In this document: piece after piece, positions 1-57,306 of the stretch
Layout of the letters: each line of letters starts with the position of its first letter
Numbering within the stretch: position 1 is the stretch's first letter
From: Raja brachyura
Lineage: Eukaryota
Direction: 5' to 3'
DNA length: 64,000 nucleotides
Assembly (NCBI GenBank): GCA_963514005.1
Contig: OY740804.1
Span: 19,406,001-19,470,000 of the forward strand
Made by a program: the position numbers and the translations under genes
Notes under the pieces: generated by a model
The model's database searches: none
Told to the model about the DNA's origin: nothing
The model's input: the letters and a program-made list of their open reading frames with translations, nothing else

Positions 1-3000
1 TAACAAAAGGTTTGCTCAATTTTATCAAAATTTATATACATCTAAAACTAACATTGAAGACAATAAAATTATAAATGTTTTAGATAAGTGTAACTTGCCA
101 AAATTGGATATCTTAGAACAAGAGGAATTAGGAGCTCAGATTACAAATAAGAGAAACAATAAAAGAACTGAAAAATGGGAAGACACCAGGGCCTGATAGT
201 TTTAATAATGAATTCAATAAAAGATTTCAGGAGTTAATGGTACCGCGATTACTTAAATTATATAGCTATGCTTTTACTGAAAAGAAATTACCAGAAACTT
301 TAGCAGAATCTACAATAATGCTTATACCAAAAAAGATAAAGATCTAGAAGATCCCGGCTCGTATAGAGCTATATCACTCTTAAATACAGATCAAAACATT
401 TTAGCAAAGGTTTTAGCAAAAAGATTGAGCAAATATATTAATAAATTGATAAACCAGGACCAAACAAGGTTTATACCCAAAAGACAATCATTTAACAATT
501 TGAGACGACTTTTTAATATAATGTATTCACATAAAGGGGAAAAGGAAGACATCAGTTATATCTTTGGACGCAGAGAAAGCATTTGACCATGTAGAGTGGC
601 AGTATTTATACATAGTACTCCAAAAATTTAATATGGGAGATAATTTTATTAGATGGGTAAAATTATTGTATGATAATCCAACAGTAAGAATATTAACTAA
701 TAATATGTTGTCTCCAAAATTCCAATTATCACGAAGCAATAGGCAGGGATGTGTATTATCACATAAAGGATAAGAACACATCCGAATATTCAGGAATACA
801 ATACTAAGGACGCTAATAATAAAATTTCATTATACGCGGATGATATGCTTTTATATATTAGAAATTCAGAAACGAGTATCCCAAATTTATTAAATGTAAT
901 AGAGGAATTTGGCTCCTTTTCTGGATATAGAATAAATTGGAATAAAAGTGAAATTGTGTCATTACAGCCCCAGAAAGCAAATCATCTATTAAAATTTCCT
1001 TTTAAAATTGCAACAGAAAAATTTAAGTATTTAGGTATTCAAGTTATCAGAAGGTATAAATCATTATTTAACACTAATTTTAGTCCTTTGTTAAATAAAT
1101 TGAACGCTTTGATTAAATTTTGGAAAATGCTACCATTATCATTAATTGGCAGAATAAATACTATAAAAATGATAGTGCTACCACAAATAATATATTTATT
1201 TCAATCCATACCAATATATATATACCAAAATATATATATTTTTAAACTAGACTCTAATATTACTAATTTTATATGGGACTACAAAGCACATATAATTAAA
1301 ATAAATCATTTGTGTAAACCTAAAGATGTAGGGGGACTTGCACTGCCTAATTTTTAATGTCATTATTGGGCAGTGCATATTAAGAATATTATTTATTGGT
1401 TGGATTGTCCTTCTTAACAGATGGAATGGATAAGAATGGAGAAAGAGGATTGCTTTCCTTACGATTTAGGAGTGATCCTCTTCTCCCTGATAAAATTGAA
1501 TAATATATTATATACGAAGAATCCAATCATACACAATATAATTCGAATTTGGAAACAAATAAAATTAACTTTAAAATTAAGAAACTTATCATCATTAACA
1601 CCAATAGCCAATAGTAAAACATATAGACAATGGCAAAGATTGGGAATTAAAAAGTTGGGTGACATGTATGAAATGGGAAATGTATTATCATTTCAACAAT
1701 TAAAATCAAAATGCAATCTGAATAATAACCAATACTGTAAATATTTACAGATATGTGACTTTATAAAAAAATATATACCAAGATTTAAGAATATAACGAT
1801 AGATCCACTGGAAGAAGCAATGAATATTAAGGCGGACTCACAAAAATTAATATCATATCTATATAACAGTATTCTTAATAGAGAATTGCCATCAACAGAG
1901 GCAATTAGAGAAGACTGGGCAAAAGATTTAATGATAAAAATTTCTAAAGAAACATGGGAGAGATATTTGATATATATACATAAATGTTCGATTAACACTA
2001 GACATAATTTAATTCAATTTAAAATATTACACAGATTATATTATTCAAAAGTTAGGTTGAATAAATTTTATTCAAATATTTCTCCCATCTGTGATAAATG
2101 CCTTTCTCAAAATGCCAACTTCAAACATTCTTTCATTTCTTGCACAAAACTTCAAAGATTTTGGTGTGATATATTTGATATTTTCACTAGTTTATTTAAG
2201 ATAAAAATGGAACCTAGCATGGAAATGATTATATTTGGACTATTAGGAGATGGAAACAAATTAAATATATCCCAAATCTCATTTATTAATTATGGTTTAA
2301 TAATAGCGAAAAAACTCATACTCAAATTCTGGAAAAAGGCTACTATACCAACACTCAAAATGTGGATTGGTAATATGTTGGAAACGGCCCATTTGGAAGA
2401 AATGAGACTCCTCCTAATAGAAAAAAAATACCAATTCTTAATGAGTTGGTCTCCATTTATTGATCTTGTGGATTCATGGGGTGTAATAACATCTTGGTTC
2501 TTGGTTACTTGGTCCTCCAAAATATTGCAACTGGAATTTAAACTGGAGGTGGTGAAGTGAGGGGTTTAGCCAGAGAGAGTTATTGGGAAGAAAGTGCCAC
2601 TTTAAATTTAGTTGCATCTGGCTGGGCAACCGTGGCTTGGTGGAGATTATTCCATGCTTTAATAGTGCGTGGAAAGAACAAATTGCTGTACACATCTGTC
2701 ATTGAGGCTGGGACCACAAATTGGATCGAATGCCCTCGTCTGCTCCTAATTGGTTTGGGGTTGGTGTAGGTCGTGTGATCTATGTCTAGCTGACCATTTA
2801 ACATTTTGTAAAAACAGGTCAAACGGTGAGCTTCACGTCTGTCTTAGAGAGGGTTCGACCCCAGAAAATTCAGAAGTTTGGTGACACTCGCTTCTCACTC
2901 GTAGGTGTTAGTAACAAATCGAGCGGCCTGTCTTTGGACACGTTCGATGGATGAAATGTTTTTATCTGTGTATGGGTCCCAAGCTGCAACTGCGTAGTCC

Positions 3001-3466
3001 AGATGAGGTCTAACGAGGGTGAAATACAGCTTCTCCTTGACAGAAGCTGGACAATGATGGAAGTTGCGCCTCAGGAAGTTTAGGACACCTGTTGCTTTCA
3101 CTGTTACATGATGAGTCTGACCATTCCAACGTAGATCATTCTGTAATTTGATGCCAATTTTACATACAATTTTACATCGTAAAATAAAAAATTCTGTGTT
3201 TGAGTGAAAAATGATTAAGAACAAAAAAATATATATATATCGACTTGTGGCGTGTGAGAATCTCCTTTCTGCTTCACTTTCTCACTTATCTCTTTCTTTA
3301 CACTACACTCACTAGACTATTCTTTACTCTTCGATACTTCTTTCTTTCTCATTTCTTTCTAAAAAAAAAAGGGAAGTTGTACAAAGAATGTTTTAACAAT
3401 TCTTGGACCTGTAAAAAGGTACCATTAAAATGTAATGCACTTCTAATAAATAATTTTTTTTTAAAA
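1..3466 (+). mobile_element. L1 LINE, ORF2 RT to C-terminus plus 3' UTR, frameshifted
   Basis: GKTPGPD, DAEKAFD, YADD, KYLG, GGLALPN and CDKC..H..C motifs; A/T tail at about 3445-3466 abutting CR1. Confidence 0.95.
2494..3173 (-). mobile_element. 5'-truncated CR1/L2-group LINE inserted in the last codon of L1 ORF2
   Basis: LYFTLVRPHLDYAVAAWDP...IERVQRQAARF and FFPRTIKAWN; (AACCAAG)n-like tail; ACATC on both sides (2489-2493, 3174-3178). Confidence 0.85.
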
Positions 3467-5545
3467 TACCGTGTGCTTTAAGTTTGTATACTAAACTCTT
3501 ATGTGGGACCTTGTCGAAAGCCTTCTGAAAGTCCAGATATAACACAGCCACCAGTTTGCCCTTATCCACTCTACTAGTTACATCCTCGAAAAATTCTATA
3601 AGATTTGTCAGACATGATTTACGTTTCGTAAACCCATGCTGACTTTGTCCAATGATTTCACCACTTTCCAAATGTGCTGCTATCCCATCTTTAATAACTG
3701 CCTCGAGCAGTTTCCCCACTACAGATGTTAGACTAACTGGTCTATAATTCCCCGCTTTCTCTCTCCCTCCTTTTTTTAAAAAGTGGGGTTACATTAGCTA
3801 CCCTCCAATCCTCAGGAACTACTCCAGAATCTAAAGAGGTTTGAAAAATTATCACTAATGCATCCACTATTTCTGTGGCTACTTCCATGAGTACTCTGGG
3901 ATGCAGCCTATCTGGCCCTGGGGATTTATTGGCCTTTAATCCATTCAATTACCCAACACCACTTCCCGGCTAACCTGGATTTCACTCAGTTCCTCCATCT
4001 TATTTGACCCCCGGTCCCCTGCTATTTCCGGCAGATTATTTATGTCTTCCTTAATGAAGACAGAAACAAAGTAGTTATTCAATTGGTCTGCCATGTCCTT
4101 GTTCCCCATGATTAATTCACCTCTTTCTGACTGCAAGGGACCTACATTTGTTTTAACTAATCTTTTTCTCTTCACATATCTATAAAAATTTTGCAGTCAG
4201 TTTTTATGTTCCCTGCCAGTTTTCTTTCATAATCTATTTTCCCTTTCCTAATTAAGCCCTTTGTCCTCCTCTGCTGGACTCTGAATTTCTCCCAGTCCTC
4301 TGCTAGGTTGCTTTTTCTGGCTAATTTGTATGCTTCATCTTTTGTTTTTATACTATTCCTGATTTGCCTTGTTATCCATGGATGCACTACCTTCCCTGAT
4401 TTATTCTTTTGATAAACTGGGATGAACAATTGTTGTAGTTCATCCATGCAGTCTTTAAATGCCTTCCATTGCACATCCACTGTCAACCCTTTAAGAATCA
4501 ATTGCCAGTCTATCTTGGTCAATTCGCATCTCATACCTTCAAAGTTACCTTTGTTCAAGTTCAGAACCCTTGTTTGTGACTTAATTTTGTCACTCTCCAT
4601 CCTAATGAAGAACTCAACCATATTATGGTCACTCTTGCCTAAGGGGCCACACACAACAAGACTGCTAACTAACCCTTCCTCATTACTCAATACCCAGCCT
4701 AGAATAGCCTGCTCTCTCGTTGGTTCCTCTACATGTTGGTTTAGAAAACTATCCCGCATACATTCCAAGAAATCCTCTTCCTCAGCACCCCTGCCAATTT
4801 GATTCACCCAATCTATATGTAGATTGAAGTCACCCATTATAACTGTTTTACCTTTGTTGCACACATTTAATTTCCTGTTTGATGCCATCCCCACCTCCAC
4901 TACTACTGTTAGGTGGCCTGTACACAACTCCCTCTAGCGTTTTCTGCCCCTTAGTGTTTCGCAGCTCTACCCACATCAACTCCAATTCCTCCAAGCTAAT
5001 GTCCTTCCTTTCTATTGCGTTAATCTCCTCTAACCAGCAACGCTACCCCACCTCCTTTACCTTTCAGTCTATCCCTCCTGAATATTGAATATCCCTGGTT
5101 GTTCAGCTCCCAGCCTTGGTCACTCTGGAGCCATGTCTCCGTGATCCCAACTATATCATAGTCATTAATTGCTATCTGCACCTTCAACTCATCCACCTTA
5201 TTACGAATGCTCCTCGCATTGAGACACAAAGCCTTCAGGCTTGTTTTTCCAACACTCTTACTCCTTATACAATTATGTTGAAAAGTGGCCCTTTTTGATT
5301 TTTGCCCTGGATTTATCTGCCTGCCACTTTTACTTTTCACCTTGCAATCAATTGCTTCTACCATCATTTTATATCCTTTATCTCTGCTGACACATTTAAG
5401 AAACCCACCACCTCTTATTCTCTGTTTATTATTTTTTTCTTCTTCCCCCCTACATGTTGGGTCTGATTGCTTCCCTTCTCTGCCTCCCGCCTCAGACACT
5501 GTCTACTAGCTTTCTCTATTTGAGTCCCTCCCCCCAACCTTTCTA
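3467..5545 (-). mobile_element. CR1-type LINE ORF2 (APE endonuclease to start of RT)
   Basis: [47 protein letters not shown]. Confidence 0.95.
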
Positions 5546-8500
5546 GAACAGAATAGACAACTTGATTTAGAAAACGCGAAAGATCCAACTATAGATAAAC
5601 ACAACAAGATAGCAATATTGAAGTTTAAACTAAACTAAATGTTATCTGCAAGAGTTATCAGATTATTTCAAATTACAAAACAGGAAAATTTCGAATTTGG
5701 CGACAAGTCACACAAACTTTGTGCACGTCAGCTGAGAAAAGTTGAAAATGACCAGACTATTCTAAAAATCAAATCAGATAAAGGTGAATTGTTAATGCTT
5801 CCCAAAGACATTAACAAAAGATTTGCCCAATTTTATCAACATTTATGCACCTCCAAGGCATCAACAGAAAGCAGAAAAATTACAAACTTTCTGGACAACT
5901 GTAATCTTCCAACACTTAACCCGCTGTAACAAGAGGAATTAGGAGCACAGATTTCAATCAAAGAAATAGAAGAGACAATCAACTTGCTGAAGAACGGTAA
6001 AACACTTGGACCAGACGGGTTCAGTAACAAATTTTATAAAAGATTTCACGAGGTAATTTCACCACGCTTACACAAGCTTTATACATGTGCATTTAAAGAA
6101 CAGACATTACCACAAACACTAGTTTAATCAACTATCACACGTATACCAAAAAAAATAAAGATTAAGTTGACCCCGGTTCATACAGAGCTGTGGTTCATTT
6201 AGCCCCGCTAAATACAGATCAGAAAATATTAGCAAAAACTTTGGCAAGAAGATTAAGTAAATACGTTAATAAAGTAATACATTCGGATCAAACGGGGTTC
6301 ATACGCAAGAGACATTCTTTTAATAATTTGAGATGCCTTTTTAACATAATATACTCACACAGAATTCAAGAAGAAAACTTATCAATTATTTCATTAGCTG
6401 CAGAAAAAGCATTTGACCAAGTAGTATGGAAATACCTTTACAAAGTACTGCAAAAATTTCAGATGGGAGAGAATTTTATTTAATGGATAAATTACTATAT
6501 GATAGGCTGATGCCAGAATACTGACCAACCACATACTTTCTCCGAAATTTCAACTATCCAGGGGCAATAGACAGGGGTGTGGATTATCACTTCTGTTATT
6601 TGCCCTTGCGATTGAACCCTTAGCGGAAAGTATAAGAGTACATCCGAACATTCACGGCTATAATACTAAACACTGCAATAACAAAATATCATTATATGCA
6701 GATGATGTATTATTATATATCACCAATTCTCAAGTTAGTATTCAGAATTAATGAGGGAATTAATGAGGGACATGAAATGAGATATTACGGATTCCAGCTG
6801 CATGGTTTTGTTTAACCCCTTGGAACCTGCTTGTATTAAAGAGTGGGATATAATGTAATACTTTTGGGTGCATATATATGGTAATGTTCAGAATATATTA
6901 ATGTTAGATAAATTGGAAAGGCATATACATAGAACTGAACATAAGTTGTGTTTTATTTTTGGTTTTATTTTTCCCCTCTTTTTCTGAATTTTTTCTGTTT
7001 TCAATTGCTCTGGTGTATGAAACGGTTCACAGCCTTTTATGAGACTCTGTTAAGGGGATGGAGCTCAATGTATAACAACATCAATGGAAGTCCATAAATC
7101 TTTCTCCACCTTAGGTGGCTTCGCGTTTTTAAGGTATCTTCTCTTAGATACCTTAATATCACTTTTTTTTTTAATTCACTATCAAGATTCTTATTTTTAT
7201 TTTATTTTTTTAACATTAACATTACATCACATTTGTTCTTTTTTTTCTTATTAAGGTATTACATAACCTTAAGAGATGTAATATAAATTGAAAAGTTCGA
7301 GACGTCCACCCAGCACCCAGAGTTCTGAGGTATTTGGTTGCACCATCTGAGTCAAAAACACTAAACTGATATATAATGCAAGACAATAGACAAATAAAGA
7401 ATGGAGGAATCACATTCTGCAGTTGTAATATAAGGGATGCCAATTAACCAATTAAGAGGGGTAAAATTTTTGCCCAATTAAAATCATTAAATTCTGACAT
7501 CATGTATTTGCCGGAATCACACATGGAACAACAAACACAGATGAGGTTGAAGGCAAGCTGGATAGGTCAAACATACTATTCTTCATTTACTTCTAAAGCT
7601 AGAGGTATGGCTATTATTATTCGGAAAGGTATACCATTTAAATTAAAGAATACTATTTTGGATAAAGAGGGAAGGTGTATTATAGTTTCGGGAGAAATTT
7701 ATTCAACTCCACTGACTATGATAAATATTTACGCTCCGAATTTTGATAACCCCCAATTTTTAAAGAAAATTATAGATATGATATCAGAGTTTAATTACCA
7801 AAATGCAATAATACGGGGAGACTTTAATTGCGTTTTAGATCCATATTTCGACAAATCAGTAAAACAAAGGAGGGGTAACTTAAAATCTAAGACTAGTGAA
7901 CTTCTAAATACATATATAAAAACTACTAATATAATAGATTATGGAGAACTGCTAATCCAACTGGAAGGGAATATTCGTTTTACTCATCGGTACATAAAAC
8001 TTATTCACGAATTGATTATTTTTTAGTGGATTCAAAATTAATTCCATACACAACTAATCCTTCATATCACACCAGTATTATTTCCGATCATTCTCCGTTG
8101 ACTTTTCTATTTGAGGGAATGCCGGGTAAAAAATCTTTTTGGAGGTTTAACACACAAATTCTAAATAACCCACAAGGTTATAAATATTTAAAACAACAAA
8201 TGAAAATGTTTTTTGAGACAAATGAAACACCAGGTATTTCACCATATTTACTATGGGAAATTTTCAAGGTATTTATCAGGGGAGTTATAATCTCATATCA
8301 AATTTTTTAAAATAAAAAGAATAAGGCAGAACAACATATGCTAGAACAAGAAATTAGACAATTAGAGTTAGATAATTCCAAAGATCCAACTACAGATAAA
8401 CATAATAAGATAATACTACTGAAATTTAAACTTAATCGAATGTTATCGGCAAGAGTAATAAGATTATTCCAAATCACAAAACAGGAACATTTTGAATTTG

Positions 8501-11500
8501 GTGACAAGCCACATAAACTCTTACCTCGCCAATTGTAAAACAAGAAAATGAAAATACTATCACTAAAATTAAATCAGAGAAAGGTGAATTACTAACATTA
8601 CCTAAGGATATTAACAATAGATTTGCTCAATTTTATCAAAATTTGTATACATCTAAAACTAAAATAGAAGATAGTAAAATTATAATTTTTTTAGATAATT
8701 GTAATCTTCCAATTCTTGACCTTTCGGAACAAGAGGAATTAGGAGCTCAGATTACACTTGAAGAAATAAGTGAAACAATAAAATTGTTGAAAAATGGTAA
8801 GACGCCTGGACCAGATGGTTTTAGTAATGAATTTTATAAAAGATTTCACGAGATAACGGCTCCACGCTTACTTAATTTACATACTCATGCATTTAAAGAA
8901 AATAAATTACCAGAAACATTAGCTGAATGAACTATTACGCTTATACCAAAAAAAATAAAGATTTAGATGAACCGGGCTCATATAGAGCTATATCACTTTT
9001 AAATACAGATCAGAACATTTTAGCAAAGATCTTAGCAAGAATTTTGAGTAAATATATTAGAAAATTGATAATTCCTGATCAAACAGGGTTTATACCCAAA
9101 AGACATTCATTTAATAATTTAAGACGCCTGTTTAATATAATGTATTCACATAAAACGGAGGAAGAACAAAGGATCAATTGGTTCTCTGGACGCAGAGAAA
9201 GCATTTGATCAGGTGGCAGTATTTATATAAAGTATTGCAAAAATTTAATATGGGAGATAATTTTATTGAATGGGTAAAATTACTATATGATAAACCGACG
9301 GCAAGAATATTAACCAATAATATGTGATCTCCAAAATTTCATTTATCGAGGGGCAATAGGCAGGGATGTGCTTTATCACCTCTGCTATTCGCCCTTATGA
9401 TAGAGCCCCTGGCTGAAAGTATAAGAAGTCATCCGAATATTCAGCAATATAATACTAGGGACTCAAATAATAAAAGTTGATTATATGCAGACGATATACT
9501 TTTATATATTACAAACTCACAAACGAGTATACCAAACTTATTAAATTTAATAGAGGAATTCGGTTCTTTTCTGGGTACAGAATAAATTGGAATAAAAATG
9601 AAATCATAACGTTAAAACCTCAAGAATCTACACACCTATTAAAATTCCCATTTAAAATTGCAACAGAAAAATTTAAGTATTTGGGTATTCAAATTACTAG
9701 AAAATACAAAGCATTATTTAATGCTAATTTTATGCCTTTATTAAATAAACTCAACGTGTCGATTAACTTCTGGAAAACACTTCCGTTATCATTAATAGGC
9801 AGAATAAATGCTATAAAAATGATCTTTTTACCACAAATATTATACATATTTCAATCTATACCATTATATATACCAAAAAACATCTTAAAAAAATTAGACT
9901 CTAATATTACCAATTTTATCTGGGAATATAGATCACATTGAATGCAAAGAAAACATTGTGCAAACCAAAAGACATTGGGGGACTTTCACTTCCGAACTTT
10001 TTGTATTATTATTGGGTAGTGCATATTAAGAATATAATTTACTGGTTGGACAGTTCTACCCAAGAGACAGAATGGATAAGAATGGAGAAAGAGGACTGTT
10101 CTCCTTGTAACATAGGAGCGATGCTCTTCTCCCCGATAAAACAGAACAACATAATATATAAGTATAACCCAATTATGCATGATACAATAAGAATTTGGAA
10201 ACAAATAAAATTATCCTTAAAATTAAGAAACCTATCATTGTTAATGCCAATAGTGAATAATCCTTCATTTAAACCATCTCTTATTGATAAAACATATAAT
10301 AAATGGGAAAGAACGGGAATTAAAAGGATCGGTGATATGTATGAAATGGGAAATCTGTTATCATTCCAACAATTACAATTAAAATTTGAACTGAAAAATA
10401 ACCAATATTTTAAATATCTTCAGATCTATGACTTCATGAAGAAATACATACAAAGATATTAAAACATAACTTCAGAGCCATTGGAAGAAGCAATGAACAT
10501 TAAGGCTGACACAGAAATTAATATCATATTTATATAATAGTATTTTAAATGTAGATTTACCATCGACAGAGACACTTAGAGAAGAGTGGGAACGAGAATT
10601 AATGATAAAAATTAAGAAGGAAACATGGAAAAAGTATTTGATATATATATACAAATGTTCGATTAATGTAAGACATAATTTAATTCAATTAAAAATTTTA
10701 TATAGATTATATTACTGAAAAACTAGACTGAATAAATTCTATCAAAAATACTTCCCCCATTTGTGATAAATGTCTATCCCAAAACGCAACTATAACACAC
10801 TCTTTTGTCTTCTGCATAAAACTTTAAAAATTCTGAAGTGGTATTTTTGAAATATTTGCAAAATTATTTAAGATGAAAATGGAACCTAATACTGAAATGA
10901 TTATATTTGGGGTAATGGAATAAACGAAACTCATCTCAAAATTTATTTTTAAATTATGGGTTAATAACGGCAAAAAAACTTATACTTAACTTTTGGAAAA
11001 ATACAACCATACCAATGCTTAAAACATGGATTTCAAACATGTTGGACACTGCACATCTTCGAGGAAATGCGATTCCTCCTAATAGATAAATCAGACCAAT
11101 TTTTAACGAGTTGGTCTCCATTTGTAGATTTATGGAAGCATACGGTACAACAAAACCGTAGAAGCTGACTGTTTCACGAATGGGTGAGGGATGGTCAAGA
11201 ATATAGATAACATCCTCCTTAATCTCTTACTTTCTACTCTTCTTTTCTTTTTTTTTCTCTTTTTCATTCTCATCTTTTTCATTCTCTATCTTTTATTATC
11301 TACTCTCTCTTTTTCTTTTTCATTATTTTAAAAAATTGAAAAATAAGAAGCTGTACATAAAATGTAATATGACAATATATATTCGGCACCTTGGTGCCAT
11401 ATTCCTGTACTTACTTCTACTAAAATTAAAACTAAATTTAAAAAGAAAAAAGGAAAAAAAAAAGTTAGTATTCCAAATATATTCAATCTTATAGAGGAAT

Positions 11501-12635
11501 TCGGTTCCTTCTCAGGATATAGAATAAACTGGAACAAAATTGAAATTATGGCAATAAAACTTCAAGAGCTGACACACCGTTTATAATTCCCTTTCAGAAT
11601 TGCTACAGAAAATTTTAAATATCTGGGTGTCCAAGTAACCAGAAAATATACTTCTTTATTCAATGCAAACTTCCCGCCTTTAGTTACTAAATTAAACGCT
11701 CTTATTCAATTCTGGAAAACACTTCCGATGTCTCTAATAGGCAGAATAAATGCCATAAAAATGATTTTCCTCCCACAAGTTCTCTATTTATTTCAATCAA
11801 TACCGATATACTGACTTAAAAAATTATTTAAAAGTCTTTATTCCCGGATTACAAACTTTATCTGGGATTATAAATCACATAGAATTCATAAACGACATCA
11901 ATGTAAACCCAAAGAAATGGGCGGATTGGCGTTCCCCAATTTCTTATACTACTGTTAGGCAACAAATATTAAAAATGTAATTTACTGGCTGGCTAACGCA
12001 TGCCAACAGGTAGACTGGTTAATAATGGAGAGAGAGGATTGTTCGCCTTTTAATATAGGCGTAATTATTTTCCCCCCAATAAAGTTGAAGAACACAATAT
12101 ATGAGAAAAATCTGATTATTCACATCACTTTACGAATCTGGACACAAGTAAAATCAACTTTTAAACTAAGAAATTTATCTCTTCTTTCTCCAACAGCAAA
12201 TAACCCATCATTTAAGCCATCTATTATAGATAAAACGTTTATTTATTGGGAAAGACTAGGAATTAAAAAGCTTGGAGATCTGTACGAGATGGGAAATCTC
12301 CTGTCATTTCAGAAATTAAAGTCGAAATACAGATTGAACCGGAATTAAACTGATTTACAGACTGGATGATGGGTGGGGAGAGAAATAAAGCAGGTATATC
12401 AACACTTTTTTTTCCCGTTTTTGTCTTTTATTTCTTTAAGTTTTTACTTACTCACTCTGACTACACTCATTTGGTAGCTTAGGGGTTCTATTATTATACA
12501 TTCACTTTCCCGTTCACTTTCTTTCTTTCTTGCTCTTCTCTTTTTCTATTTCATCTTTGCTAAAATTAAAATGCAAGCTGTACAATAAATGTATTATGTC
12601 ATATGCCGTGGTTTATACTTTTGCACACTGCTTCT
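5546..12635 (+). mobile_element. L1 LINE (host copy), 5'-truncated, split by a nested L1, with an internal deletion near 12345
   Basis: ORF2 motifs at 5546-6743 resume at 11462 just after YADD; 12-bp TSD around the insert. Confidence 0.9.
6744..11461 (+). mobile_element. Nested L1 with inter-ORF region, full-length but disrupted ORF2 (about 7376-11162), 3' UTR and poly(A)
   Basis: EN motifs (NIYAPN, GDFN, SDHSP), RT and zinc-knuckle motifs; TSD AAGTTAGTATTC at 6732-6743 and 11462-11473. Confidence 0.95.
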
Positions 12636-12854
12636 AACAGTGCCCAAGAACAGGATCGAACACAGATCTCTGGCGTGTGAGGCAGCAAGTCCACCAGCTG
12701 TGCCACTATATTTGTTTTCCAACACACAAAATGCTATACGTTGATAACTTTGGTTACTAAAAATTTTAAATATCAATGTTCAGTTTTAAATCTCCAAGTG
12801 ACGCTATGTCCCCCTTTACAGCTACTGTATGTTTTAATTAAGTTCAAGACTATG

Positions 12855-24936: not shown

Positions 24937-25035
24937 TGATGATGTGGGTGGCAACAGTGACTAAGATGCCAATCAGAAGCAGGACGGCAGCAATCGTGGC
25001 CCTCAGCCAACATCCACAGAGACAGCTTCTCAACC
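24937..25035 (-). pseudogene. Orphan paralogous TM exon of the SLAM-like gene (GLRSCLCGCWLRATIAAVLLLIGILVTVATHII)
   Basis: 99 nt with AG and GTGAGT sites, alignable to exon 4; flanking intron 25036-25185 aligns to 41793-41945. Confidence 0.85.
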
Positions 25036-25169: not shown

Positions 25170-26326
25170 AGCATGGACTGAACACTGCTGCAGAGTGCCT
25201 TGTCAAGATCAACGGCTCTTTGTTGGCCCCCATTCACTTTGGGAGGGGGTTAGTCAGGGATGTTCCATTTCCGGCCAGCAATATTCTATCTGTGTGGAGC
25301 CATTCCTGTGCCTCCTCTGGAGGCGGTTGGCAGAACTGGTTTTGCAGGGGCCGGGGGTGGAGGTGGTTCTCTCAGCCTACGCTGATGACGTTCTTCTAAA
25401 GTTCACCGACCATGTTGACCTGCGGAGGATGCGTGAGTGCCAGCAGTTTTTCTCAGCTGCGTCCTCCGCCAGGATCAATTGGGGAAGTGTTCTGGTCTCA
25501 TGGTGGGTCGGTGGCAGGTGGACTCCCTGCCGGAGGAGGTGGCAGGTTTTGCGTGGATGCCCAGTGTACCGTTCAGTGACGCGAAGAGGCGCGCGTTGTG
25601 CAGGTCGCTCCTGCACACTCTGCACATCCTCGCCCTCGTCTTCCGTCCAGACACACCCTGGCGGTCCGTGTTACCACCTGTCGGCGGGAGCGGTCCACAG
25701 TGGAGGTCTCTCTACAAGGGAGTCCTCCCCCTTTACATCGGGGACCTGGGGTGGAGAGTGTTGCACAAAGCCGTGGCCTGCAACAGGTACTTGAGCCGGT
25801 TCACAGACTCGTCCGCCGCCTGTCACTTCTGCGGCGAGGAGGAGTCTGTGTACCATTTGTACACGCAGTGTGAGAGGTTGCAGCCCCTGTTCGAGTATCT
25901 GATGGGGTTGCTCCTCAAGTTTTGGCTCCATTTTAGTCCAACACTATTTATTTTTGGGCACCCGGTACAGAGGGGGGAGGGTCGGGAGGGAGGAGGGGGT
26001 CTCCCTGTCGGTCTGCTCCTGGGCCTGGCCAAGATGGCCATTCGCGGGTCCAGGCAGCGGGCAGTCGACGGCCGCACAGCAGTCTGCCCCTTTTCCGGGG
26101 TTATGTACGTGCTCGCGTGTCCCTGGAGAGGGAACACGCGGTGTCCACAGGGACTGTGGAGGCCTTCTGTGAACGCTGGTCACCGCAGGAGGTGGAATGC
26201 ATTATTGATAGAAATGTTAATATTTTTATTTGATAATTTTCTTTGTAAGATGCCAATATAGGCATTCTTTGATTGTGTTACTACTTGTATTTGTTTGTTT
26301 TGATTAAAGCATTTTGTAAAAAAAAA
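25170..26326 (+). mobile_element. Tx1-clade LINE, 5'-truncated and internally deleted, copy 1, with poly(A)
   Basis: GVSQGCSISG, SAYADDV, ARINW, then DLGWRVLH..CHFCGEEESVYH..C zinc knuckle. Confidence 0.9.
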
Positions 26327-40911: not shown

Positions 40912-41157
40912 CTAATCCCCTATCGGCATCTCCCTCCCTATCTTCCACCCTTTTTGACCTTCCTGTTCACTTTCCCCCCCATGTTGTGTGATGGGGAAAG
41001 GCAAGGTGGGAGCAAGGAGAGGTGGGATGGGGAGGAAGATGGACGTTGGAGAGGAAGAGAGGGAGAGTGGGAGGTAGGATGGGGAGAAGAAAAGACATAA
41101 GACGTGGTCATTCAGCTTTGTGAAGTCTGCCTCCAGTTCCGGGGACAGGGTGGGAGC
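40912..41157 (-). CDS. CD2/SLAM-family Ig receptor, putative terminal exon 6 (APTLSPELEADFTKL...PIGD*)
   Basis: 91-nt intron with CTGAC branch point and ctttctcccctctgtttccccacAG acceptor; phase 0 matches ORF 40912..41208; AATAAA on minus strand at 40707-40702. The true C-terminus is less certain. Confidence 0.6.
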   Translation of the reverse strand, partial: APTLSPELEADFTKLNDHVLCLFFSPSYLPLSLSSSPTSIFLPIPPLLAPTLPFPITQHGGESEQEGQKGWKIGREMPIGD

Positions 41158-41693: not shown

Positions 41694-41792
41694 TGATGAT
41701 GTGGACGGCAGCCATGACTGAGAGAAGACATAGGAGCAGGACGGCAGCAATTATGGCCCTCGGCCGACATCCACAGAGATAGCTTCTCTCCC
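41694..41792 (-). CDS. CD2/SLAM-family Ig receptor, exon 4 (transmembrane; GERSYLCGCRPRAIIAAVLLLCLLSVMAAVHII)
   Basis: Pyrimidine tract plus cactAG acceptor, 99 nt, GTGAGT donor, phase 1/1; 21-aa hydrophobic stretch; exon boundaries conserved in the paralogous copy at 24937-25035. Confidence 0.88.
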
Positions 41793-42022: not shown

Positions 42023-42304
42023 CAAACATTGTCTGCTTACAGACGTCCTTCAGCCGAATCTCTGCCGTGCCTTCACTGACCGGGTTCGTGGCCTCACACT
42101 TGTACACAACGTCTCCGACCTCTGCTGTGTGATGAACCTCTACCGTCTCTCCGTGTCCCCTGAGGCGATGGGTGCTGTCGTTTCCCACAGCTTCTCCTCC
42201 CCTCCACCACCTGAAGCTGGTGGGGTCGCTGGAGATCACAGAGCAGGTCAGGGTGCAGATCCTGGTGATGTTCTGAACCACGATGTGTGTTCCTGACACG
42301 GGCT
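42023..42304 (-). CDS. CD2/SLAM-family Ig receptor, exon 3 (IgC2 domain)
   Basis: caatctcAG acceptor, 282 nt open, GTGAGT donor, phase 1/1. EPVS...CTLTC...W...YKCEATNPVS...DVC gives four Cys and the CxxxNPVS motif of SLAM C2 domains; N-glycosylation sequons NIT and NDS. Confidence 0.92.
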
Positions 42305-45195: not shown

Positions 45196-45516
45196 CGTAC
45201 ACCTCCAGTCGGATTCCTGACAGAATTTCAGTTCCTGAACGTGTAATAACTGTCACCTCATAATCACCAGCATCCTCTCTCCAGAGATCACGGATTTCCA
45301 GACTTAAACTCTTGGGATGAAAAGTCATCCGTCGCACGTACTCCTCAGTTCCGAAGAATGCAATATTCCCCTTTGAGAATCCCATTATTTTGCTTCTGAG
45401 AGATGTTTTCCTCCACTCAATCTTGCCAATGTCCAGTCCACCTGCAATCTCAGGAGATAAGGAGATCGAGTGCCCCAGTGCTCCATTCACAGTGGGAGGG
45501 AGATCCTCAGTCCCAG
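45196..45516 (-). CDS. CD2/SLAM-family Ig receptor, exon 2 (IgV domain without cysteines)
   Basis: cttccttAG acceptor, 321 nt open, GTGAGT donor, phase 1/1. VNGALGHSISL...IEW...SLEIRDLWREDAGDYEV...LEVY is a V-set fold lacking the canonical disulfide, typical of CD2/SLAM N-terminal domains. Confidence 0.92.
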
Positions 45517-48417: not shown

Positions 48418-48472
48418 GGATTGAGCCGGGGAGAGACAGCCAGAAGCAGATGAGCAGGCACCAAACATCCAT
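48418..48472 (-). CDS. CD2/SLAM-family Ig receptor, exon 1 (signal peptide MDVWCLLICFWLSLPGSI)
   Basis: ATG at 48472; 55 nt hydrophobic leader followed by GTGAGT donor (48417-48412); phase 1, compatible with exon 2. Confidence 0.85.
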
Positions 48473-49770: not shown

Positions 49771-49967
49771 TCCAGTTTTCCGGCACCTCACCCATGACTA
49801 ACAATGATGCATAAATCTCATCCAGGGCTCCTGCAATTTCTTCTCTAGCTTACTATTGTTCTTGGATATATCGGATCAGGCCCTGAAGATTTATTTACTT
49901 TCATACATTTTAACATGTCAAGTACCTTCTGTAATGTCCAAGACATCCGCTTTAACTTTTCTGAGTT

Positions 49968-52900
49968 AGAAACATAGAAAACATAGGAAATAGGTGCAGG
50001 AGAAGGTCATTCGGCCCTTCGAGCCTGCACCGCCATTCAATATGATCATGGCTGATCATTCAACTCAATATCCTGTACCTGCCTTCTCTCCATACCCCCT
50101 GATCCCTTTAGCCACAAGGGCCACATCTAACTCCCTCTTAAATATAGCCAATGAACTGGCCTCAACTACCCTCTGTGGTAGAGAATTCCAGAGACTCACC
50201 ACTCTCTGTGTGAAAAATGTTTTTCTCATCTCGGTCCTAAAAGACTTCCCCCTTATCCTTAAACTGTGACCCCTTGTTCTGGACTTCCCCAACATCGGGA
50301 ACAATCTTCCTGCATCTAGCCTGTCCAACCCCTTAAGAATTTTGTAGGTTTCTATAAGATCCCCCCTCAATCTTCTAAATTCTAGCGAGTACAAGCCGAG
50401 TCTATCCAGTCTTTCCTCGTATGAAAGTCCTGACATCTGAGGAATCAGTCTGGTGAAACTTCTCTGTACCCCCTCTATGGCAAGAATGTCTTTCCTCAGA
50501 TTTTGAGATCAAAACTGTACGCAATACTCCAGGTATGGACTCACCAAAACCCTGTACAACTGCAGTAGAACCTCCCTGCTCCTATACTCAAATCTTTTTG
50601 CTATGAATGCTAACATACCAGTTGCTTTCTTCAAAGCCTGCTGCACCTGCATGCCTACTTTCAATGACTGGTGTACCATGACACCCAGGTCTCATTGCAT
50701 CTCCCCTTTTCCTAATTGGCCACCATTCAGATAATAGTCTACCCTCCTGTTTTGCCACCAAAGTGGATAACCTCACATTTATCCACATTATACTTCATCT
50801 GCCATACATTTGCCTACTCACCCAGCCTATCCAAGTCACCTGGCAGCCTCCTAGATTCCTCCTCACACCTAACACTGCCCCCCAGCTTCGTGTCATCCGC
50901 AAACTTGGAGATGTTGCATTCAATTCCCTCGTCCAAATTATTAATATATATTGTAAATAGCTGGGGTCCCAGCACTGAGGCTTGCGGTACCCCACTAGTC
51001 ACTGCCTGCCATTCTGAAAAGGACCCATTTACTCCTACCCTTTGCTTCCTGTCTGCCAGCCAGTTCTCTATCCACGTCAATACTGAACCTCCAATACCAT
51101 GTGCTTTAAGTTTGTATACTAATCTCTTATGTGGGACCTTGTCGAAAGCCTTCTGAAAGTCCAGATATAACACATCCACTGGTTCTCCCTTATCCACTCT
51201 ACTAGTTACATCCTCGAAAAATTCTATAAGATTCGTCAGACATGATTTTTTTTTTTTTTTATACTTTGTTTTATTAGAAGTAATCTATTTACAATAATGT
51301 AAACAGCTTTACAAACCTCAACTTAATTACACATTTTTTAAATAACCCATTGACAGTTATCATCTTCTATTTTTTTGGAAATAAAGAAAAGAATAGAATA
51401 GTTTTAAATCAATAAGAAAGTGATTAAATAATAATTTGATTATATAGAAAAGAAGAAGAAAATAGAGCAAGGAAAAAAGATTATAGATTAACAAAAAATG
51501 AGAAAATATTATATATATATATATATATCAATGAAAATCAACAAAATATATTGTATCTAAAACTATTACAAATAGTAATATCAATGAAGACATGCCTATT
51601 AATCCTAGTATAAGAATAAATTATTCTCATCAAATCCCGCTGGGTACCCGTCAGGCTGTGACGTCAAGAACAGCTACTTCTCTAGATACTGTATATATGG
51701 AGACCATATTTGTTCGAAGATATTATATTTGTCCAATAGGACAAATCTGATTCTTTCTAATTGTAACGTCTCCAACATCTCTGCTGCCCACATTTTAATT
51801 GTGGGGGATAATGTTCCCTTCCAAAATTTCAATATGATTTTTTTCCCTATTATCAAACAGTAATCAAAGAAATTTCTTTGATTTCCTGTAAGTACCGAAT
51901 TTGAATCCAAAATCCCAAGTATTATTAACTTTGGGTCTGGATCCAATCTAATTTTTAGAACCTCAGAAATAACCTTAAAAATTTCTGTCCAGTAGTAACT
52001 CAGTTTGGGACATGTAGCAAAACTATGTATTAAATTTGCTTCTAAGTTCTTACATTTATCACAAATTGAAGAGAGATTGTGAAAGATACTATTTAATTTA
52101 GTTTTTGAATAGTGTAATCTGTATAATACTTTGAATTGTATCAATGTATGTCTGGCATTTAACGAACACCGATGTATTTGCTGTAAACTTTCTTCCCAAT
52201 TTTCTTTTGTTATGGATAAACCAATTTCCTTTTCCCATGCTTGCCGATATGTTTCCGTTGTTGGATTCTCCTTATCCAAAATTATGTTATATATATGGGC
52301 TATTAATTTTTCTGTATTTGGGTGTAAATTAAACAAATCATCTAATAATCCTGGTACTTTATTTTTATAATCTAGTGTGTTTGATTTTATATAATCTCTA
52401 ATTTGTAAGTACCTAAACAAGTGTTGCGGAGACAATCCATAGATATCTTGTAACTCTCGGAATAAAATAAATTTTCCTTTTCTATAAAGGTGCTCTATCC
52501 TTTTAATTCCTAAATCATCCCAATGTCTAAACCCTCCATCCAATATAGAGGGCTTAAATAATGGGTTATTCATTATTGGTAGTCTAAGTGAAAGATTATC
52601 TAGCTGTAAAGTCTTAACTATTTGTTTCCAAATACATCTATTATTATAAATTATAGGGTTATCCCTATAAATTTTTTTTGTACTTCCTTTGGGGCAAAGA
52701 GAACCGATCCTACATTATAGGGTGAACAATCTTCCTTTTCCATCTTTAACCACATTGGTTCATAATCCATATTTACCCACCAAAAATTCATATTCTTAAT
52801 CTGGACTGCCCAAAAATAATATAAAAAATTTGGAAGTGCTAATCCTCCATTTATCTTAGATTTACATAAATGTTTTTTACTTATTCTATGATTTTTATAA

Positions 52901-55900
52901 TCCCAAATAAAACTATAAATAATATTATCTATTTTTTTAAAAAAGGTCTTTGGGAGAAAAAAAGGAATAGCCTGGAACAAATATAATAATTGTGGTAAAA
53001 ACACCATCTTTATAGCGTTTATTCTACCAATCATGGATATAGGAAGTGTTTTCCAGTACAAAATATTTTTTTAAAGTTTATCTAATAATAGAGGGTAATT
53101 AGATTTAATTAGTGAATTATAAGATTTGGTTACATTAATTCCTAAATATTTAAATTTGTCTTTAACTATTTTTAACGAATATTGTTGTAATATATTTAAG
53201 TTAATTTCTGTTATAGGCATAATTTCACTTTTATTCCAGTTAATTCTAAATCCTGCAAAATGTGCCAAAGATAGTTATAACATTGAGTAACTTAGGTAAA
53301 CTAATTTCCAGTTTTGTAATATAAATCAAAACATCATCTGCATATAAAGATATTTTGTTAGTTGTTGTGTCAGTATTATAGCCATAGATTTCAGGTTCTG
53401 ATCTGATTCTTTCCGCCAAAGGCTCTATCATCAAAGCAAATAATAAAGGCGATAACGAACAACCCTGTCTACAACCCCTAGAGAGCTTAAATTTAGCTGA
53501 TAATATTTGATTAGTTAAGATTCTTGCCGTTGGATTCAAATATAAAATTCTTATCCATTTACAAAATCTATCCCCCAATTGAAACTTTTCCATTATATTA
53601 AATAAATATAACCATTCCACCTGATCGAATGCCTTTTCTGCATCTAGCGAGACAACTGCTAATTCCCTGTCCCGTACTCTTTTTGAATATATAATATTAA
53701 ACAAGCGTCTGAGATTATGAGATGAGTAGCGTTTTGGGATAAAACCTGTTTGATCTTGATGTATTAATTTAGAAATCACCAAACTTAATCTCCGAGATAA
53801 AACTTTCGTTAGTATTTTTTGGTCTGTATTTAGAAGTGCGATCGCTCTATATGATCCTGGATCTTCCAAATCCTTATCTGCCTTAGGAATAAGTGTAATT
53901 GTAGATTCGTTTAAAGATTCTGGTAGTTTACCTTGTTCATATGCATATCTATATACTGTATATAATCTTGGGGAAATCAGATCTAGAAATTTTTTATAAA
54001 ATTCTGCACTTAGGCCATCGGGGCCCGCTGCTTTTCCATTCTTTAACGAACTAATTGATTCTTCAATATCTTTTACTGTTATTTCGGCGTTTAACAAATG
54101 TCTACCTTCCTGATCTAAACTGTTAATTTGACACTTTTGTAGAAATGTTTCCATATCCACTGTTTGTCCTGTTAATTTAGATGAATAAAGATTTTGATAA
54201 TATTGTAGAAATCTGTCATTAATATCTTTTGGTATCGTCAATATATTTCCATCCACCGATCTAATTCTATGTATCAATTTTTCATCCTCTAATTTTCTAA
54301 GTTGTCTTGCTAATAGTTTTTGTGGTTTGTCTCCAAACTCGAAATGCACTTGTTTGGTTTGTTGAAATAGTTTAATGATTTGGTTAGAATATATTTTATT
54401 TAGTCTATATTTTGCTATTGCAATTTTGTTACTTAGCTCTTTAGAAGGGCGTTTTATATTTTCACTATCTAGTTGTTTTATCTCGTGTTCTAACTTTTGT
54501 TCCATCTTTCTATTTTCTTTATTAAGATAAGCCTGTGCAGATATTATTGCACCACGCATAAATGCTTTAAATGTGTCCCAGAGTAACGATGGTGAAGTTT
54601 CCGGTTTGTCATTAGTTTCAAAAAATAATTTAATCTGTTCCGTCACATGTTTACAACAGTCCTTATCCTTTAATATCTGGGGATTAAATCTCCAAGTAGT
54701 CGTTTTATTAAGTATATCTTTTAGTTTTATCTTAAATGTAAGAGGCGCGTGATCTGAAATAATAATATTGTGATATTTTGCGTCATACGTAAAAGGTAGT
54801 AATTTTGAATCTATTAAAAAATAATCTATCCTAGAATAAGTTCCGTGTACGGGCGAAAAAAACGAGTATTCTCGTCCGGATGGATTATCTAATCTCCAAA
54901 TATCCTTAACATTCGATGTATTAATAAAATAATTTATAAGTTTACTTGAATTAGAGGTAACTTTCCTTTTTGTAGAAGACCTGTCTAGGTAGCTATCTAA
55001 GGTGCAATTAAAGTCACCCCCAATAACTAAATTATATTGTGTGGAAATAGGAATATTATTAAATATTTTCTTAAAAAATAGTGGGTTATCAAAATTAGGG
55101 GCATATATATTCACCAAAATTACTTTCTGTGAATATAATTCCCCTGTAATTATTACATATCTACCCTCTTTGTCCTCTATTATAGAATTTTGTTTAAAAG
55201 GTATACCTTTACTGATAATTATTGCAACTCCTCTAGATTTGTGTGTAAATGAAGAGTGATATACCTTGGAAATCCATTTCGCTGTTAATCTATATTGAGC
55301 ATCTCTTTTGAGATGAGTCTCTTGGAGGAAGATCACGTCTGATTTCAATCTATTCAACTGTGCTAGTACCTTTCCCCTTTTAATTGGTTCATTAATTCCC
55401 TTAACATTCCAACTACAGAAGGTAATTCCACCCCCCCCCCCCGGTCTTCACATTCATATCTTGCATTTTACTATTAGGGTGGGTTTTTTTGGAGTAGCCT
55501 TCTCGACCCCTCCAGCCCAGCGGTATACCCAAACGCCAATCCGATGAGAATTTCTATCTTCAGTAATCCATATACATATCTTCTTAGAGCGATTATACAA
55601 TATCGTTCATAACTACATTCATATAATATATAACGCAGAATCAAATATTTAATATATAAGAAAAAGTACAAAGTGTAATTAAAAAAAGAGAAAGGGGTGT
55701 TAACAGGGTGCCCAGAAAAAAAAGAAACTACACTGGTATAGTGTGTAGTGTGCATTAGTGAAAGCCACACTAACGTGGCTATTAATCTACTGACTTCCGT
55801 TTTTTTAAGAAAAGAGATGTTAAATGTTCCAGCTCCTGTCTATAATACTATGTATATTGGGGTGGGGTACTAACTTTAAGTACTTAGTAAATATTTCTAT

Positions 55901-57306
55901 TATTCATATTACTAATTACCAGTTATTAATTTCTAGTATAATTAATATTATAGTAGGTAATATAGTAGGAAATTATAGTAGGAAAAATTCTATCAGATTT
56001 GTCAGACATGATTTACCTTTCGTAAATCCATGCTGACATTGTCCAATGATTTCACCACTTTCCAAATGTGCTGCTATCCCATCTTTAATCACTGACTCTA
56101 GCAGGTTCCCCACTACCGGTGTTAGACTAACTGGTCTGTAATTCCACGTTTTCTCTCTCCCTCCTTTTTTAAAAAGTAGGGTTACATTAGCTACCCTCCA
56201 ATCCTCAGGAACTACTCCAGAATCAAAAGAGTTTTGAAAAATTATCACTAATGCATCCACTATTTCTGTGGCTACTTCCTTGAGTACTCTGGGATGCAGC
56301 CTATCTGGCCCTGGGGATTTATCGGCCTTTAATCCATTCAATTTACCCAACACCACTTCCCGGCTAACCTGGATTTCACTCAGTTCCTCCATCTTATTTG
56401 ACCCCCCGTCCCCTGCTATTTCCGGCAGATTATTTATGTCTTCCTTAATGAAGACAGAACCAAAGTAGTTATTCAATTGGCCTGCATGTCCTTGTTCCCC
56501 ATGATCAATTCACCTGTTTCTGACTGCAAGAGACCTACATTTGTTTTAACTAATCTTTTTCTCTTCACATATCTATAAAAACTTTTGCAGTCAGTTTTTA
56601 TGTTCCCTGCCAGTTTTCTTTCATAATCTATTATCCCTTTCCTAATTAAGCCCTTTGTCCTCTTCTGCTAGACTCTGAATTTCTCCCAGTCCTCTGCTAG
56701 GTTGCTTTTTCTGGCTAATTTGTATGCTTCATCTTTTGTTTTGATACTATCCCTGATTTCCCTTGTTATCCACGGATGTACTACCTTCGATGATTTATTC
56801 TTTTGCAAACTGGGATGAACAATTGTTATAGTTCATCCATGCAGTCTTTAAATGCCTTCCATTGCACATCCACTGTTAACCCTTTAAGAATCAATTGCCA
56901 GTCTATTTTGGGCAATTCACGTCTCATACCTTAAAAGTTACCTTTCTTTAAGTTCAGAACCCTTGTTTCTGAATTAATGATGTCACTCTCCATCCTAATG
57001 AAGAACTCAACCATATTATGGTCACTCTTGCCCAAGGGGCCACACACAATAAGACTGCTAACTAACCCTTCCTCATTACTCAATACCCAGTCTAGAATAG
57101 CCTGCTCTCTCGTTGGCTCCTCTACATGTTGGTTTAGAAAACTGTCCCACATACATTCCAAGAAATCCTCTTCCTCAGCACGCCTGCCAATTTGATTCAC
57201 CCAATCTATTTGTAGATTGAAGTCACCCATTATAACTGTTTCACATTTGTTGCACGCATTTGTAATTTCCTGTTTGATGCCATCCCCAACTCCACTACTA
57301 CTGTTA
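49968..57306 (-). mobile_element. CR1 LINE ORF2 (EN to 3' tail), split by L1
   Basis: 57306-55982 and 51248-49968 rejoin at [11 protein letters not shown]; same subfamily as 3467-5545. Confidence 0.95.
51249..55981 (-). mobile_element. L1 with near-intact ORF2 (about 55466-51674; 703-aa open EN+RT; about 4 breaks)
   Basis: FLQETH, NIYAPN, GGDFN, SRIDY, SDH, YADD, CDKC..H..C; poly(T) at 51246-51260; 33-bp TSD. Confidence 0.97.

Follow-up and report, generated by a model that had tools for sequence, protein, structure and literature searches.

The window, which is the whole stretch of 64,000 nucleotides of Raja brachyura DNA that was analysed, contains an intact CD2/SLAM gene of five exons on the minus strand (hereafter gene 1; 268 amino acids). 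The exon encoding its transmembrane (TM) segment displays a basic residue set in a strictly spaced module, which recurs in other batoids and in sharks. With modest confidence, we lean towards a reading of this pattern in which gene 1 would signal through an ITAM adaptor of the FcR-gamma/CD3-zeta kind, as the activating partner of neighbouring ITSM-tailed SLAMs.

The exons of gene 1 join into a single frame of 807 nt, with canonical splice sites and no internal stop:

48418–48472, minus strand: coding part of exon 1 (55 nt), with the ATG, the signal peptide and a GT donor; it matches the signal region of Rhinoraja longicauda P0008.
45196–45516, minus strand: exon 2, a Cys-free IgV domain of the CD2/SLAM type (Pfam V-set, 2.7e-7).
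42023–42304, minus strand: exon 3, an IgC2 domain with four cysteines (Pfam I-set/ig matches and Cys count).
41694–41792, minus strand: exon 4 (99 nt, phase 1-1, AG/GT ends), a short Cys-bearing stalk and the TM module.
41108–41157, minus strand: exon 5, adding 15 residues and a stop, without Tyr; the C-terminus is R-L-H-K-A-E.

The hallmark of CD2/SLAM proteins is an N-terminal IgV domain lacking the canonical disulfide, followed by an IgC2 domain with conserved cysteines. Gene 1 has no cysteine in its IgV domain and four in its IgC2 domain. The top 10 PDB sequence matches of its IgV exon are CD2, SLAMF6 and SLAMF5, and the AlphaFold2 model of a sawfish relative (P0013) retrieves NTB-A, CD48, CD2 and CD58 at Foldseek ranks 1–8. 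By its Cys pattern, its Pfam matches and its closest sequences and folds, gene 1 is a member of the CD2/SLAM family, as the sequence-only reading of this DNA had proposed. The product is identical at 227 of 268 residues (85%) to the R. longicauda RefSeq protein P0008 and, likewise, to P0059, and its IgV domain shares 91% identity with a protein of Amblyraja radiata. That reading had also listed tails devoid of Tyr motifs among the traits of receptors coupled to FcR-gamma/CD3-zeta; in gene 1, no Tyr follows the TM segment, and the tail type encoded by exon 5 is found again in P0008, P0059, P0013, P0014, P0017 and P0018. Read-through from the TM exon into the following intron was considered as another source for the tail and rejected: the sequence permits it, but the relatives match the separate tail exon.

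The TM exon of gene 1 reads ERSYLCGCRPRAIIAAVLLLCLLSVMAAVHII. Pfam returned no match for it, and only a sub-threshold match for the similar exon at 24937–25035. Both exons are 99 nt long, lie on the minus strand between AG and GT ends, and carry the Arg followed by a hydrophobic run that had first drawn attention to them. With positions counted from the basic residue, the residues of gene 1 that matter most below are:

41767–41769, minus strand: Cys228, position -3, where NxxR receptors have Asn; Cys in 17/17 aligned relatives.
41758–41760, minus strand: Arg231, the basic residue itself, conserved as Arg in batoids and as Lys in sharks.
41701–41703, minus strand: His250, position +19; among aligned relatives His in 16/17 and Gln in 1/17.

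To place these residues among relatives, we gathered 76 named elasmobranch proteins from 15 species through three protein searches and two cluster look-ups; the accessions that were looked up are RefSeq XP_ predictions. Fourteen of the 76 had no predicted TM segment and were dropped, leaving 62 TM-bearing proteins. The module was defined as C-x-x-[R/K]-x18-[H/Q]-[I/V]-I-S without gaps; this pattern was written after the sequences had been seen, and proteins were assigned to the module by its C-terminal half, without regard to the basic residue. So defined, it is present in 20 of the 62 proteins, from 11 species. In all 20 the Arg or Lys stands exactly 19 residues before the His or Gln, and no gap occurs between Cys-3 and Ser+22. 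The sequence-only reading had staked its proposal on conservation of the Arg in sharks and rays: a basic residue is indeed kept throughout, as Arg in 11/11 batoid module proteins (six species) and as Lys in 9/9 shark ones (five species). The module is absent from the proteins retrieved for Heptranchias, Narcine, Rhincodon and Hypanus. Beyond the named set, 24 high-identity proteins were examined among the 150 matches listed, and one of these 24 has the module, with Arg.

Five positions are invariant in the 17 aligned module proteins, namely Cys-3, Leu+8, Leu+11, Ile+21 and Ser+22; the 8/8 aligned shark sequences share, in addition, a Thr at +9. The stalk contains two or three cysteines, among which Cys-3 is the invariant one. 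Gene 1 itself departs from its batoid relatives at two positions that they conserve: the Pro at -1 is particular to it (Leu in 9/9 aligned batoid relatives), and Tyr replaces the batoid Cys at -7 (within 41758–41790), as also in 3/8 sharks. A second Arg is found at -2 (codon 41764–41766), as in 6/9 batoids. Between sharks and batoids, identity reaches 0.39 in the module, compared with 0.24 in the stalk, 0.26 in the signal peptide, 0.46 in IgV and 0.59 in IgC2; within batoids, conservation is 0.82 for the module, 0.78 for IgC2 and 0.59 for IgV. On a matched measure the module scores 0.38 against 0.21 for ITSM-type TMs, a control that mixes paralogues and is thereby biased low.

The similar exon at 24937–25035 had been taken for that of a paralogue. 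As an intact gene this paralogue does not exist in the window, where only the TM exon and the 3' end of an IgV exon were found:

24937–25035, minus strand: isolated ("orphan") TM exon, from a second gene that is broken, keeping Cys-3, the Arg (codon 25001–25003) and His+19.
31415–31438, minus strand: 3' remnant (approx. 24 nt) of the IgV exon of the second gene, GT donor included; unrelated DNA beside retroelement-like open reading frames (ORFs) takes the place of the remainder.
36520–36756, plus strand: relic of an IgC2 exon, inverted and 3'-truncated, with an antisense match to the start of P0010.

Neither a second signal exon, nor a second tail exon, nor a minus-strand IgC2 exon was detected in the window (tblastn with the 76 named relatives; blastn with the gene 1 exons). 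The two TM exons are 79% identical at the DNA level, their codon differences being 12 non-synonymous and 2 synonymous, and 27–28 of 31 residues of the orphan are the same in P0010, P0011 and P0015, proteins of the second gene in other skates, where it is intact. It has, however, Gly in place of Leu+11, invariant in the 17/17 aligned relatives, and Leu in place of Ser+13 (Ser in 15/17). The orphan exon is most likely a pseudogene remnant, and may alternatively reflect an assembly fault. Because it is the lone exon of a broken gene, this copy adds little as evidence for conservation.

The relic at 36520–36756 was dismissed as the IgC2 exon of the paralogue, on its opposite strand, its truncation and its antisense match to the start of P0010; judged from sequence, it is probably not an exon of the second gene's own. 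The N-terminus of the R. longicauda RefSeq model P0010 also matches the antisense of 36432–36524 and 36102–36188. These matches suggest an older relic common to R. longicauda, where it probably lies upstream of the second gene as well; and since the antisense of the relic (36102–36756) forms the N-terminus of P0010, the 5' end of that model is probably mis-predicted.

Retroelement-like DNA fills much of the window (1–11100, 25170–27419, 29791–34219 and 49967–57306), recognized by eye from fragments of reverse transcriptase- and endonuclease-like ORFs. A retroelement-like tandem pair of 1.1 kb, 93% identical, adjoins the orphan exon. No other host genes were recognized in the window.

How the basic residue sits in the membrane is central to its meaning. 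A position-dependent hydrophobicity scan with 21-residue windows was applied to 23 sequences, and the best window includes the basic residue in 22 of them, at TM position 3 in 16 and at position 4 in 6; it falls outside in the remaining one. The earlier claim that the TM segment begins with the Arg is a prediction, and an ambiguous one for gene 1, whose windows with the Arg inside (-1.65 kcal/mol) and outside (-1.53 kcal/mol) tie. This tie arises because Pro replaces the batoid Leu before the Arg, and Pro-1 would favour a helix start at the Arg in gene 1. In AlphaFold2 models, the helix spans residues 226–253 in P0013 (Arg231, start at -5) and 229–258 in P0029 (Lys233, start at -4), with low confidence at its start (approx. 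51 in P0013, below 50 in P0029). As a separate observation, Ser-Pro is invariant at -5/-4 in the shark module proteins (8/8: P0029, P0207, P0034, P0038 and P0063–P0066); in sequence it resembles a helix N-cap, which would put the Lys one turn into the helix. From these models, the basic residue is likely to lie at the outer end of a membrane helix.

Another explanation, which we hold to be possible, if doubtful, makes gene 1 an adhesion SLAM or a ligand without signalling of its own, comparable with CD58 or SLAMF8/9: the basic residue would only flank the membrane, and the conserved Cys, Ser and His would be there for homodimers joined by disulfides or for a different partner in the membrane. 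Between the basic residue and the His or Gln, the run without any charged, amide, His or Pro residue is 18 long in all 20 module proteins; the median of 23 ITSM-type TMs is 23, although 5 of these are also at or below 18, and this shortness speaks for adaptor coupling. With His and Ser taken as membrane residues, the charge-free run that follows the basic residue extends over 22–29 residues, inside the ordinary range of the ITSM-type TMs (20–45), so that the residue could simply flank the membrane. A snorkelling flank residue would tolerate the interchange of Arg and Lys, and the two or three stalk cysteines with an invariant Cys-3 would suit a linked homodimer. By contrast, neither the exact, gap-free spacing of Cys-3, basic residue and His+19 in 11 species nor the strict split into an Arg-using and a Lys-using lineage is expected from a flank residue, and the predicted TM windows mostly include it. 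The conservation moment points toward the Arg face, within 26–44 degrees; tested in four variants, the concentration of shark–batoid conservation on that face never reached significance, 6317 to 12743 of 20000 shuffles attaining the observed moment, and this counts against adaptor coupling.

The preferred reading, that of adaptor coupling, was proposed because the module fits an FcalphaRI-like geometry and because a Tyr-free tail needs a signal from outside. In this mechanism, the IgV domain would bind a ligand, and stalk cysteines would form disulfide-linked dimers. With a helix predicted to start near -5/-4 and its basic residue at TM position 3–4, the Arg would engage the paired aspartates of a dimeric ITAM adaptor of the FcR-gamma/CD3-zeta type, assembly presumably taking place in the endoplasmic reticulum (ER); phosphorylation of the ITAMs would then recruit Syk/ZAP-70. 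The Arg of FcalphaRI is placed at TM position 3 by PMC1440944. According to the same source, exchanging it for Lys greatly reduced the assembly of human FcalphaRI with Fc-gamma, a loss that counts against coupling since 9/9 shark proteins have Lys. A 2026 review (PMC13107469) raises a possible role for polar residues one turn above the Arg of FcalphaRI and records that the assembly has no structure so far; in the module, that position is the invariant Cys. A two-copy complex prediction for the TM region of P0013 (218–260) scored 0.07, which is no answer, and was weighed neither for nor against dimers.

The catfish receptor IpLITR 2.6b is, like gene 1, an Ig-superfamily protein with a basic TM residue (Lys) and a short tail, and Lys-bearing LITR is described as binding FcR-gamma, FcR-gamma-L and CD3-zeta-L rather than DAP12; it belongs, however, to another family, and its Lys is dispensable for adaptor binding (PMC4810170). 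As for the adaptors themselves, cd247 is reported to be expressed in bamboo-shark T cells (PMC11372145), and no record confirming FcR-gamma in elasmobranchs was found in the literature and records searched. The Lys of sharks is also the starting point of an alternative that we regard as highly improbable, in which the partner would be an adaptor of the DAP10/DAP12 type, or one specific to fish, instead of FcR-gamma or zeta. All shark proteins have the Lys that type I partners of DAP12 use (PMC1440944), and the shark Thr at +9 would point the same way. DAP12, however, is described as needing a Lys near TM position 9 (PMC1440944), whereas the module residue is predicted at 3–4 without any central basic residue, and batoids use Arg.

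The closest published parallel lies in amphibians, where NxxR TMs, which promote FcR-gamma association, occur in the Xenopus FCRL and CD2/SLAM families (PMC4536121, PMC6557307); for the Xenopus XFL proteins the association has been demonstrated (PMC2413239). The sequence-only reading had mentioned reports of charged-TM SLAMs in amphibians, and rightly so. Since Xenopus NxxR CD2/SLAMs are already published, the idea of a charged TM is not new for this family. The Xenopus genes (Guselnikov 2011, via PMC4536121, PMC6557307) and the elasmobranch ones belong to the same family and to expanded clusters, in which a subset carries a basic residue at the N-terminal end of the TM. Compared with the published descriptions, the elasmobranch module differs by Cys instead of Asn at -3, by its shark Lys form, and by His/Gln instead of an acidic C-end. 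The NxxR TM signature comprises, besides NxxR itself, an N-terminal DYT consensus (PMC6557307) and the acidic C-end (PMC6557307, PMC2413239), and neither of the latter two is present in the module column profile from -8 to +23; Cys at -3 is shared by the 17/17 aligned relatives and both exons of the window. As in FcR-gamma-coupled receptors with an NxxR TM, the basic residue is predicted at 3–4 (save for the tie in gene 1) with a fixed residue one turn above, the tail is short and Tyr-free, and partners with similar ectodomains have tyrosine motifs; the ectodomain family is different, and NxxR, DYT and acidic C-end are all lacking. The exon structure differs too, as TM and tail share one exon in Xenopus XFL (PMC2413239) and are separate in gene 1. 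By sequence, the module may work like NxxR receptors but is not a member of the NxxR TM family. The FcR-gamma-adaptor-like context claimed for the Arg is supported by the Tyr-free tail and by the position predicted for the basic residue in 22 of 23 sequences; Cys-3 and His/Gln depart from it, and the shark Lys speaks against it.

Mammalian relatives without Tyr motifs (SLAMF8, SLAMF9, CD58 and CD48) share the IgV–IgC2 fold and the lack of ITSM with gene 1. They differ by the Lys/Arg-rich cytoplasmic tail of SLAMF9 and the GPI anchor of others, no TM basic residue being described in the accounts at hand; for SLAMF9, no TM Arg was found in the literature searched. Adaptors have been proposed for the Tyr-free SLAMF9 (PMC7078004, PMC6963180), and its signalling route is called unclear (PMC7078004), which lends the adhesion explanation some support. 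The sequence-only reading had also called coupling to an ITAM adaptor a mode not used by mammalian SLAMs. Mammalian 2B4 depends functionally on FcepsilonRI-gamma/CD3-zeta, although SAP, and not a TM charge, is named as the link (PMC12506779). In elasmobranchs, slamf genes are placed in the white-shark MHC by PMC10751288, with no mention of a TM feature. No published description of the module in elasmobranchs was found in the literature searched, which left out most subscription journals.

Tails distinguish module proteins from other family members. The ITSM-like motif (TxYxxV/I) is present in 0/20 module tails versus 23/42 other TM-bearing elasmobranch SLAMs; the motif being also missing in 19 of these 42, its absence is compatible with an adhesion protein as well. 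A lone Tyr occurs in the tail of 4 shark module proteins. Across all 62 proteins, ITSM accompanies a TM basic residue in 2/28 and its absence in 21/34 (Fisher p 1.2e-5, inflated by related rows); without the module proteins, the counts are 2/9 versus 21/33 (p 0.055).

Tail length bears on another explanation, to which we give very little credence: the stalk and TM region would be a GPI-attachment signal as in CD48, with small stalk residues, a basic spacer and a hydrophobic run. CD48 and one form of CD58 are described as GPI-anchored (PMC12506779). Ser, Cys and Gly occur 4–8 positions before the basic residue, and three shark models (P0029, P0207 and P0065) end at most nine residues past the predicted TM. 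Against this, a conserved, hydrophilic tail of approx. 16 residues is present in gene 1, where it has its own exon, and in 11/11 batoid module proteins, and the tail reaches 33–46 residues in 6 shark proteins. GPI attachment is generally prevented by a tail this long, and the signals for it tend to show little conservation.

Two further features of these tails can be mentioned. All 11 batoid tails end in R-[L/P]-H-K-[A/T]-E, in which Lys takes position -3 counted from the C-terminus, an ending absent from shark tails; by analogy with FcepsilonRI-alpha, for which an ER-retrieval signal masked on assembly is reported (PMC2120483), it might be a non-canonical signal of that type. Besides, P0032 (Mobula birostris) and P0037 (Hypanus sabinus) are RefSeq isoforms that have the same tail and no TM exon, and would be secreted; in gene 1, the frame is kept if the 99-nt, phase 1-1 TM exon is skipped.

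The distribution of the module was then compared with a tree of the IgC2 domain (61 rows, 91 columns; 17 named proteins, in which the domain did not parse, were left out). Module proteins do not form a single group on this tree: the label must change 10 times, at least 7 of these changes being forced by well-supported branches, and 6 of 500 shuffles give so low a count. Those of Mustelus and of the two Scyliorhinus species sit together with ITSM-type proteins of their own species. We infer that a conserved TM on species-homogenized ectodomains looks like paired receptors, although chimeric gene models in a tandem cluster, or alternative splicing or TM exons, could mimic this pattern.

A second kind of TM Arg was noticed in six other proteins: P0042, P0046 and P0056 (Mobula, Hemitrygon), P0047 and P0055 (Mobula) and P0072 (Scyliorhinus canicula). 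In 5/6 the Arg follows approx. four hydrophobic residues and precedes 18–24 uncharged ones; P0055 has two Arg. Tyr after the TM is found in 0/6. Judged by this layout, these Arg look more clearly membrane-embedded than the Arg of the window. Since P0047 and P0055 have Arg where close relatives have Gly or Val, recent gains are suggested.

A broader reading would join these elements, and we offer it tentatively, as a possibility that we rather doubt. The Cys-x-x-Arg/Lys...His module would be an elasmobranch adaptor module of activating SLAMs, older than the shark–batoid split and independent of that of frogs, on ectodomains continually homogenized with their ITSM partners. The Cys would link dimers, or even the adaptor covalently, and the Arg/Lys split would track a change of adaptor. 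With the second kind of TM Arg (6 proteins), activating SLAMs would have arisen more than once here.

Xenopus already provides the published concept, which limits the surprise, and the elasmobranch module would be a new form of it; if adaptor coupling is true, charged-TM SLAMs are not a frog oddity. One and the same module position is Arg in rays and Lys in sharks, and would then also provide a natural way to test the rule by which Arg marks the partners of FcR-gamma and Lys those of DAP12. Again if true, the pairing of activating with ITSM-type SLAM receptors would be as old as the cartilaginous fish, which of all living lineages with adaptive immunity are the oldest.
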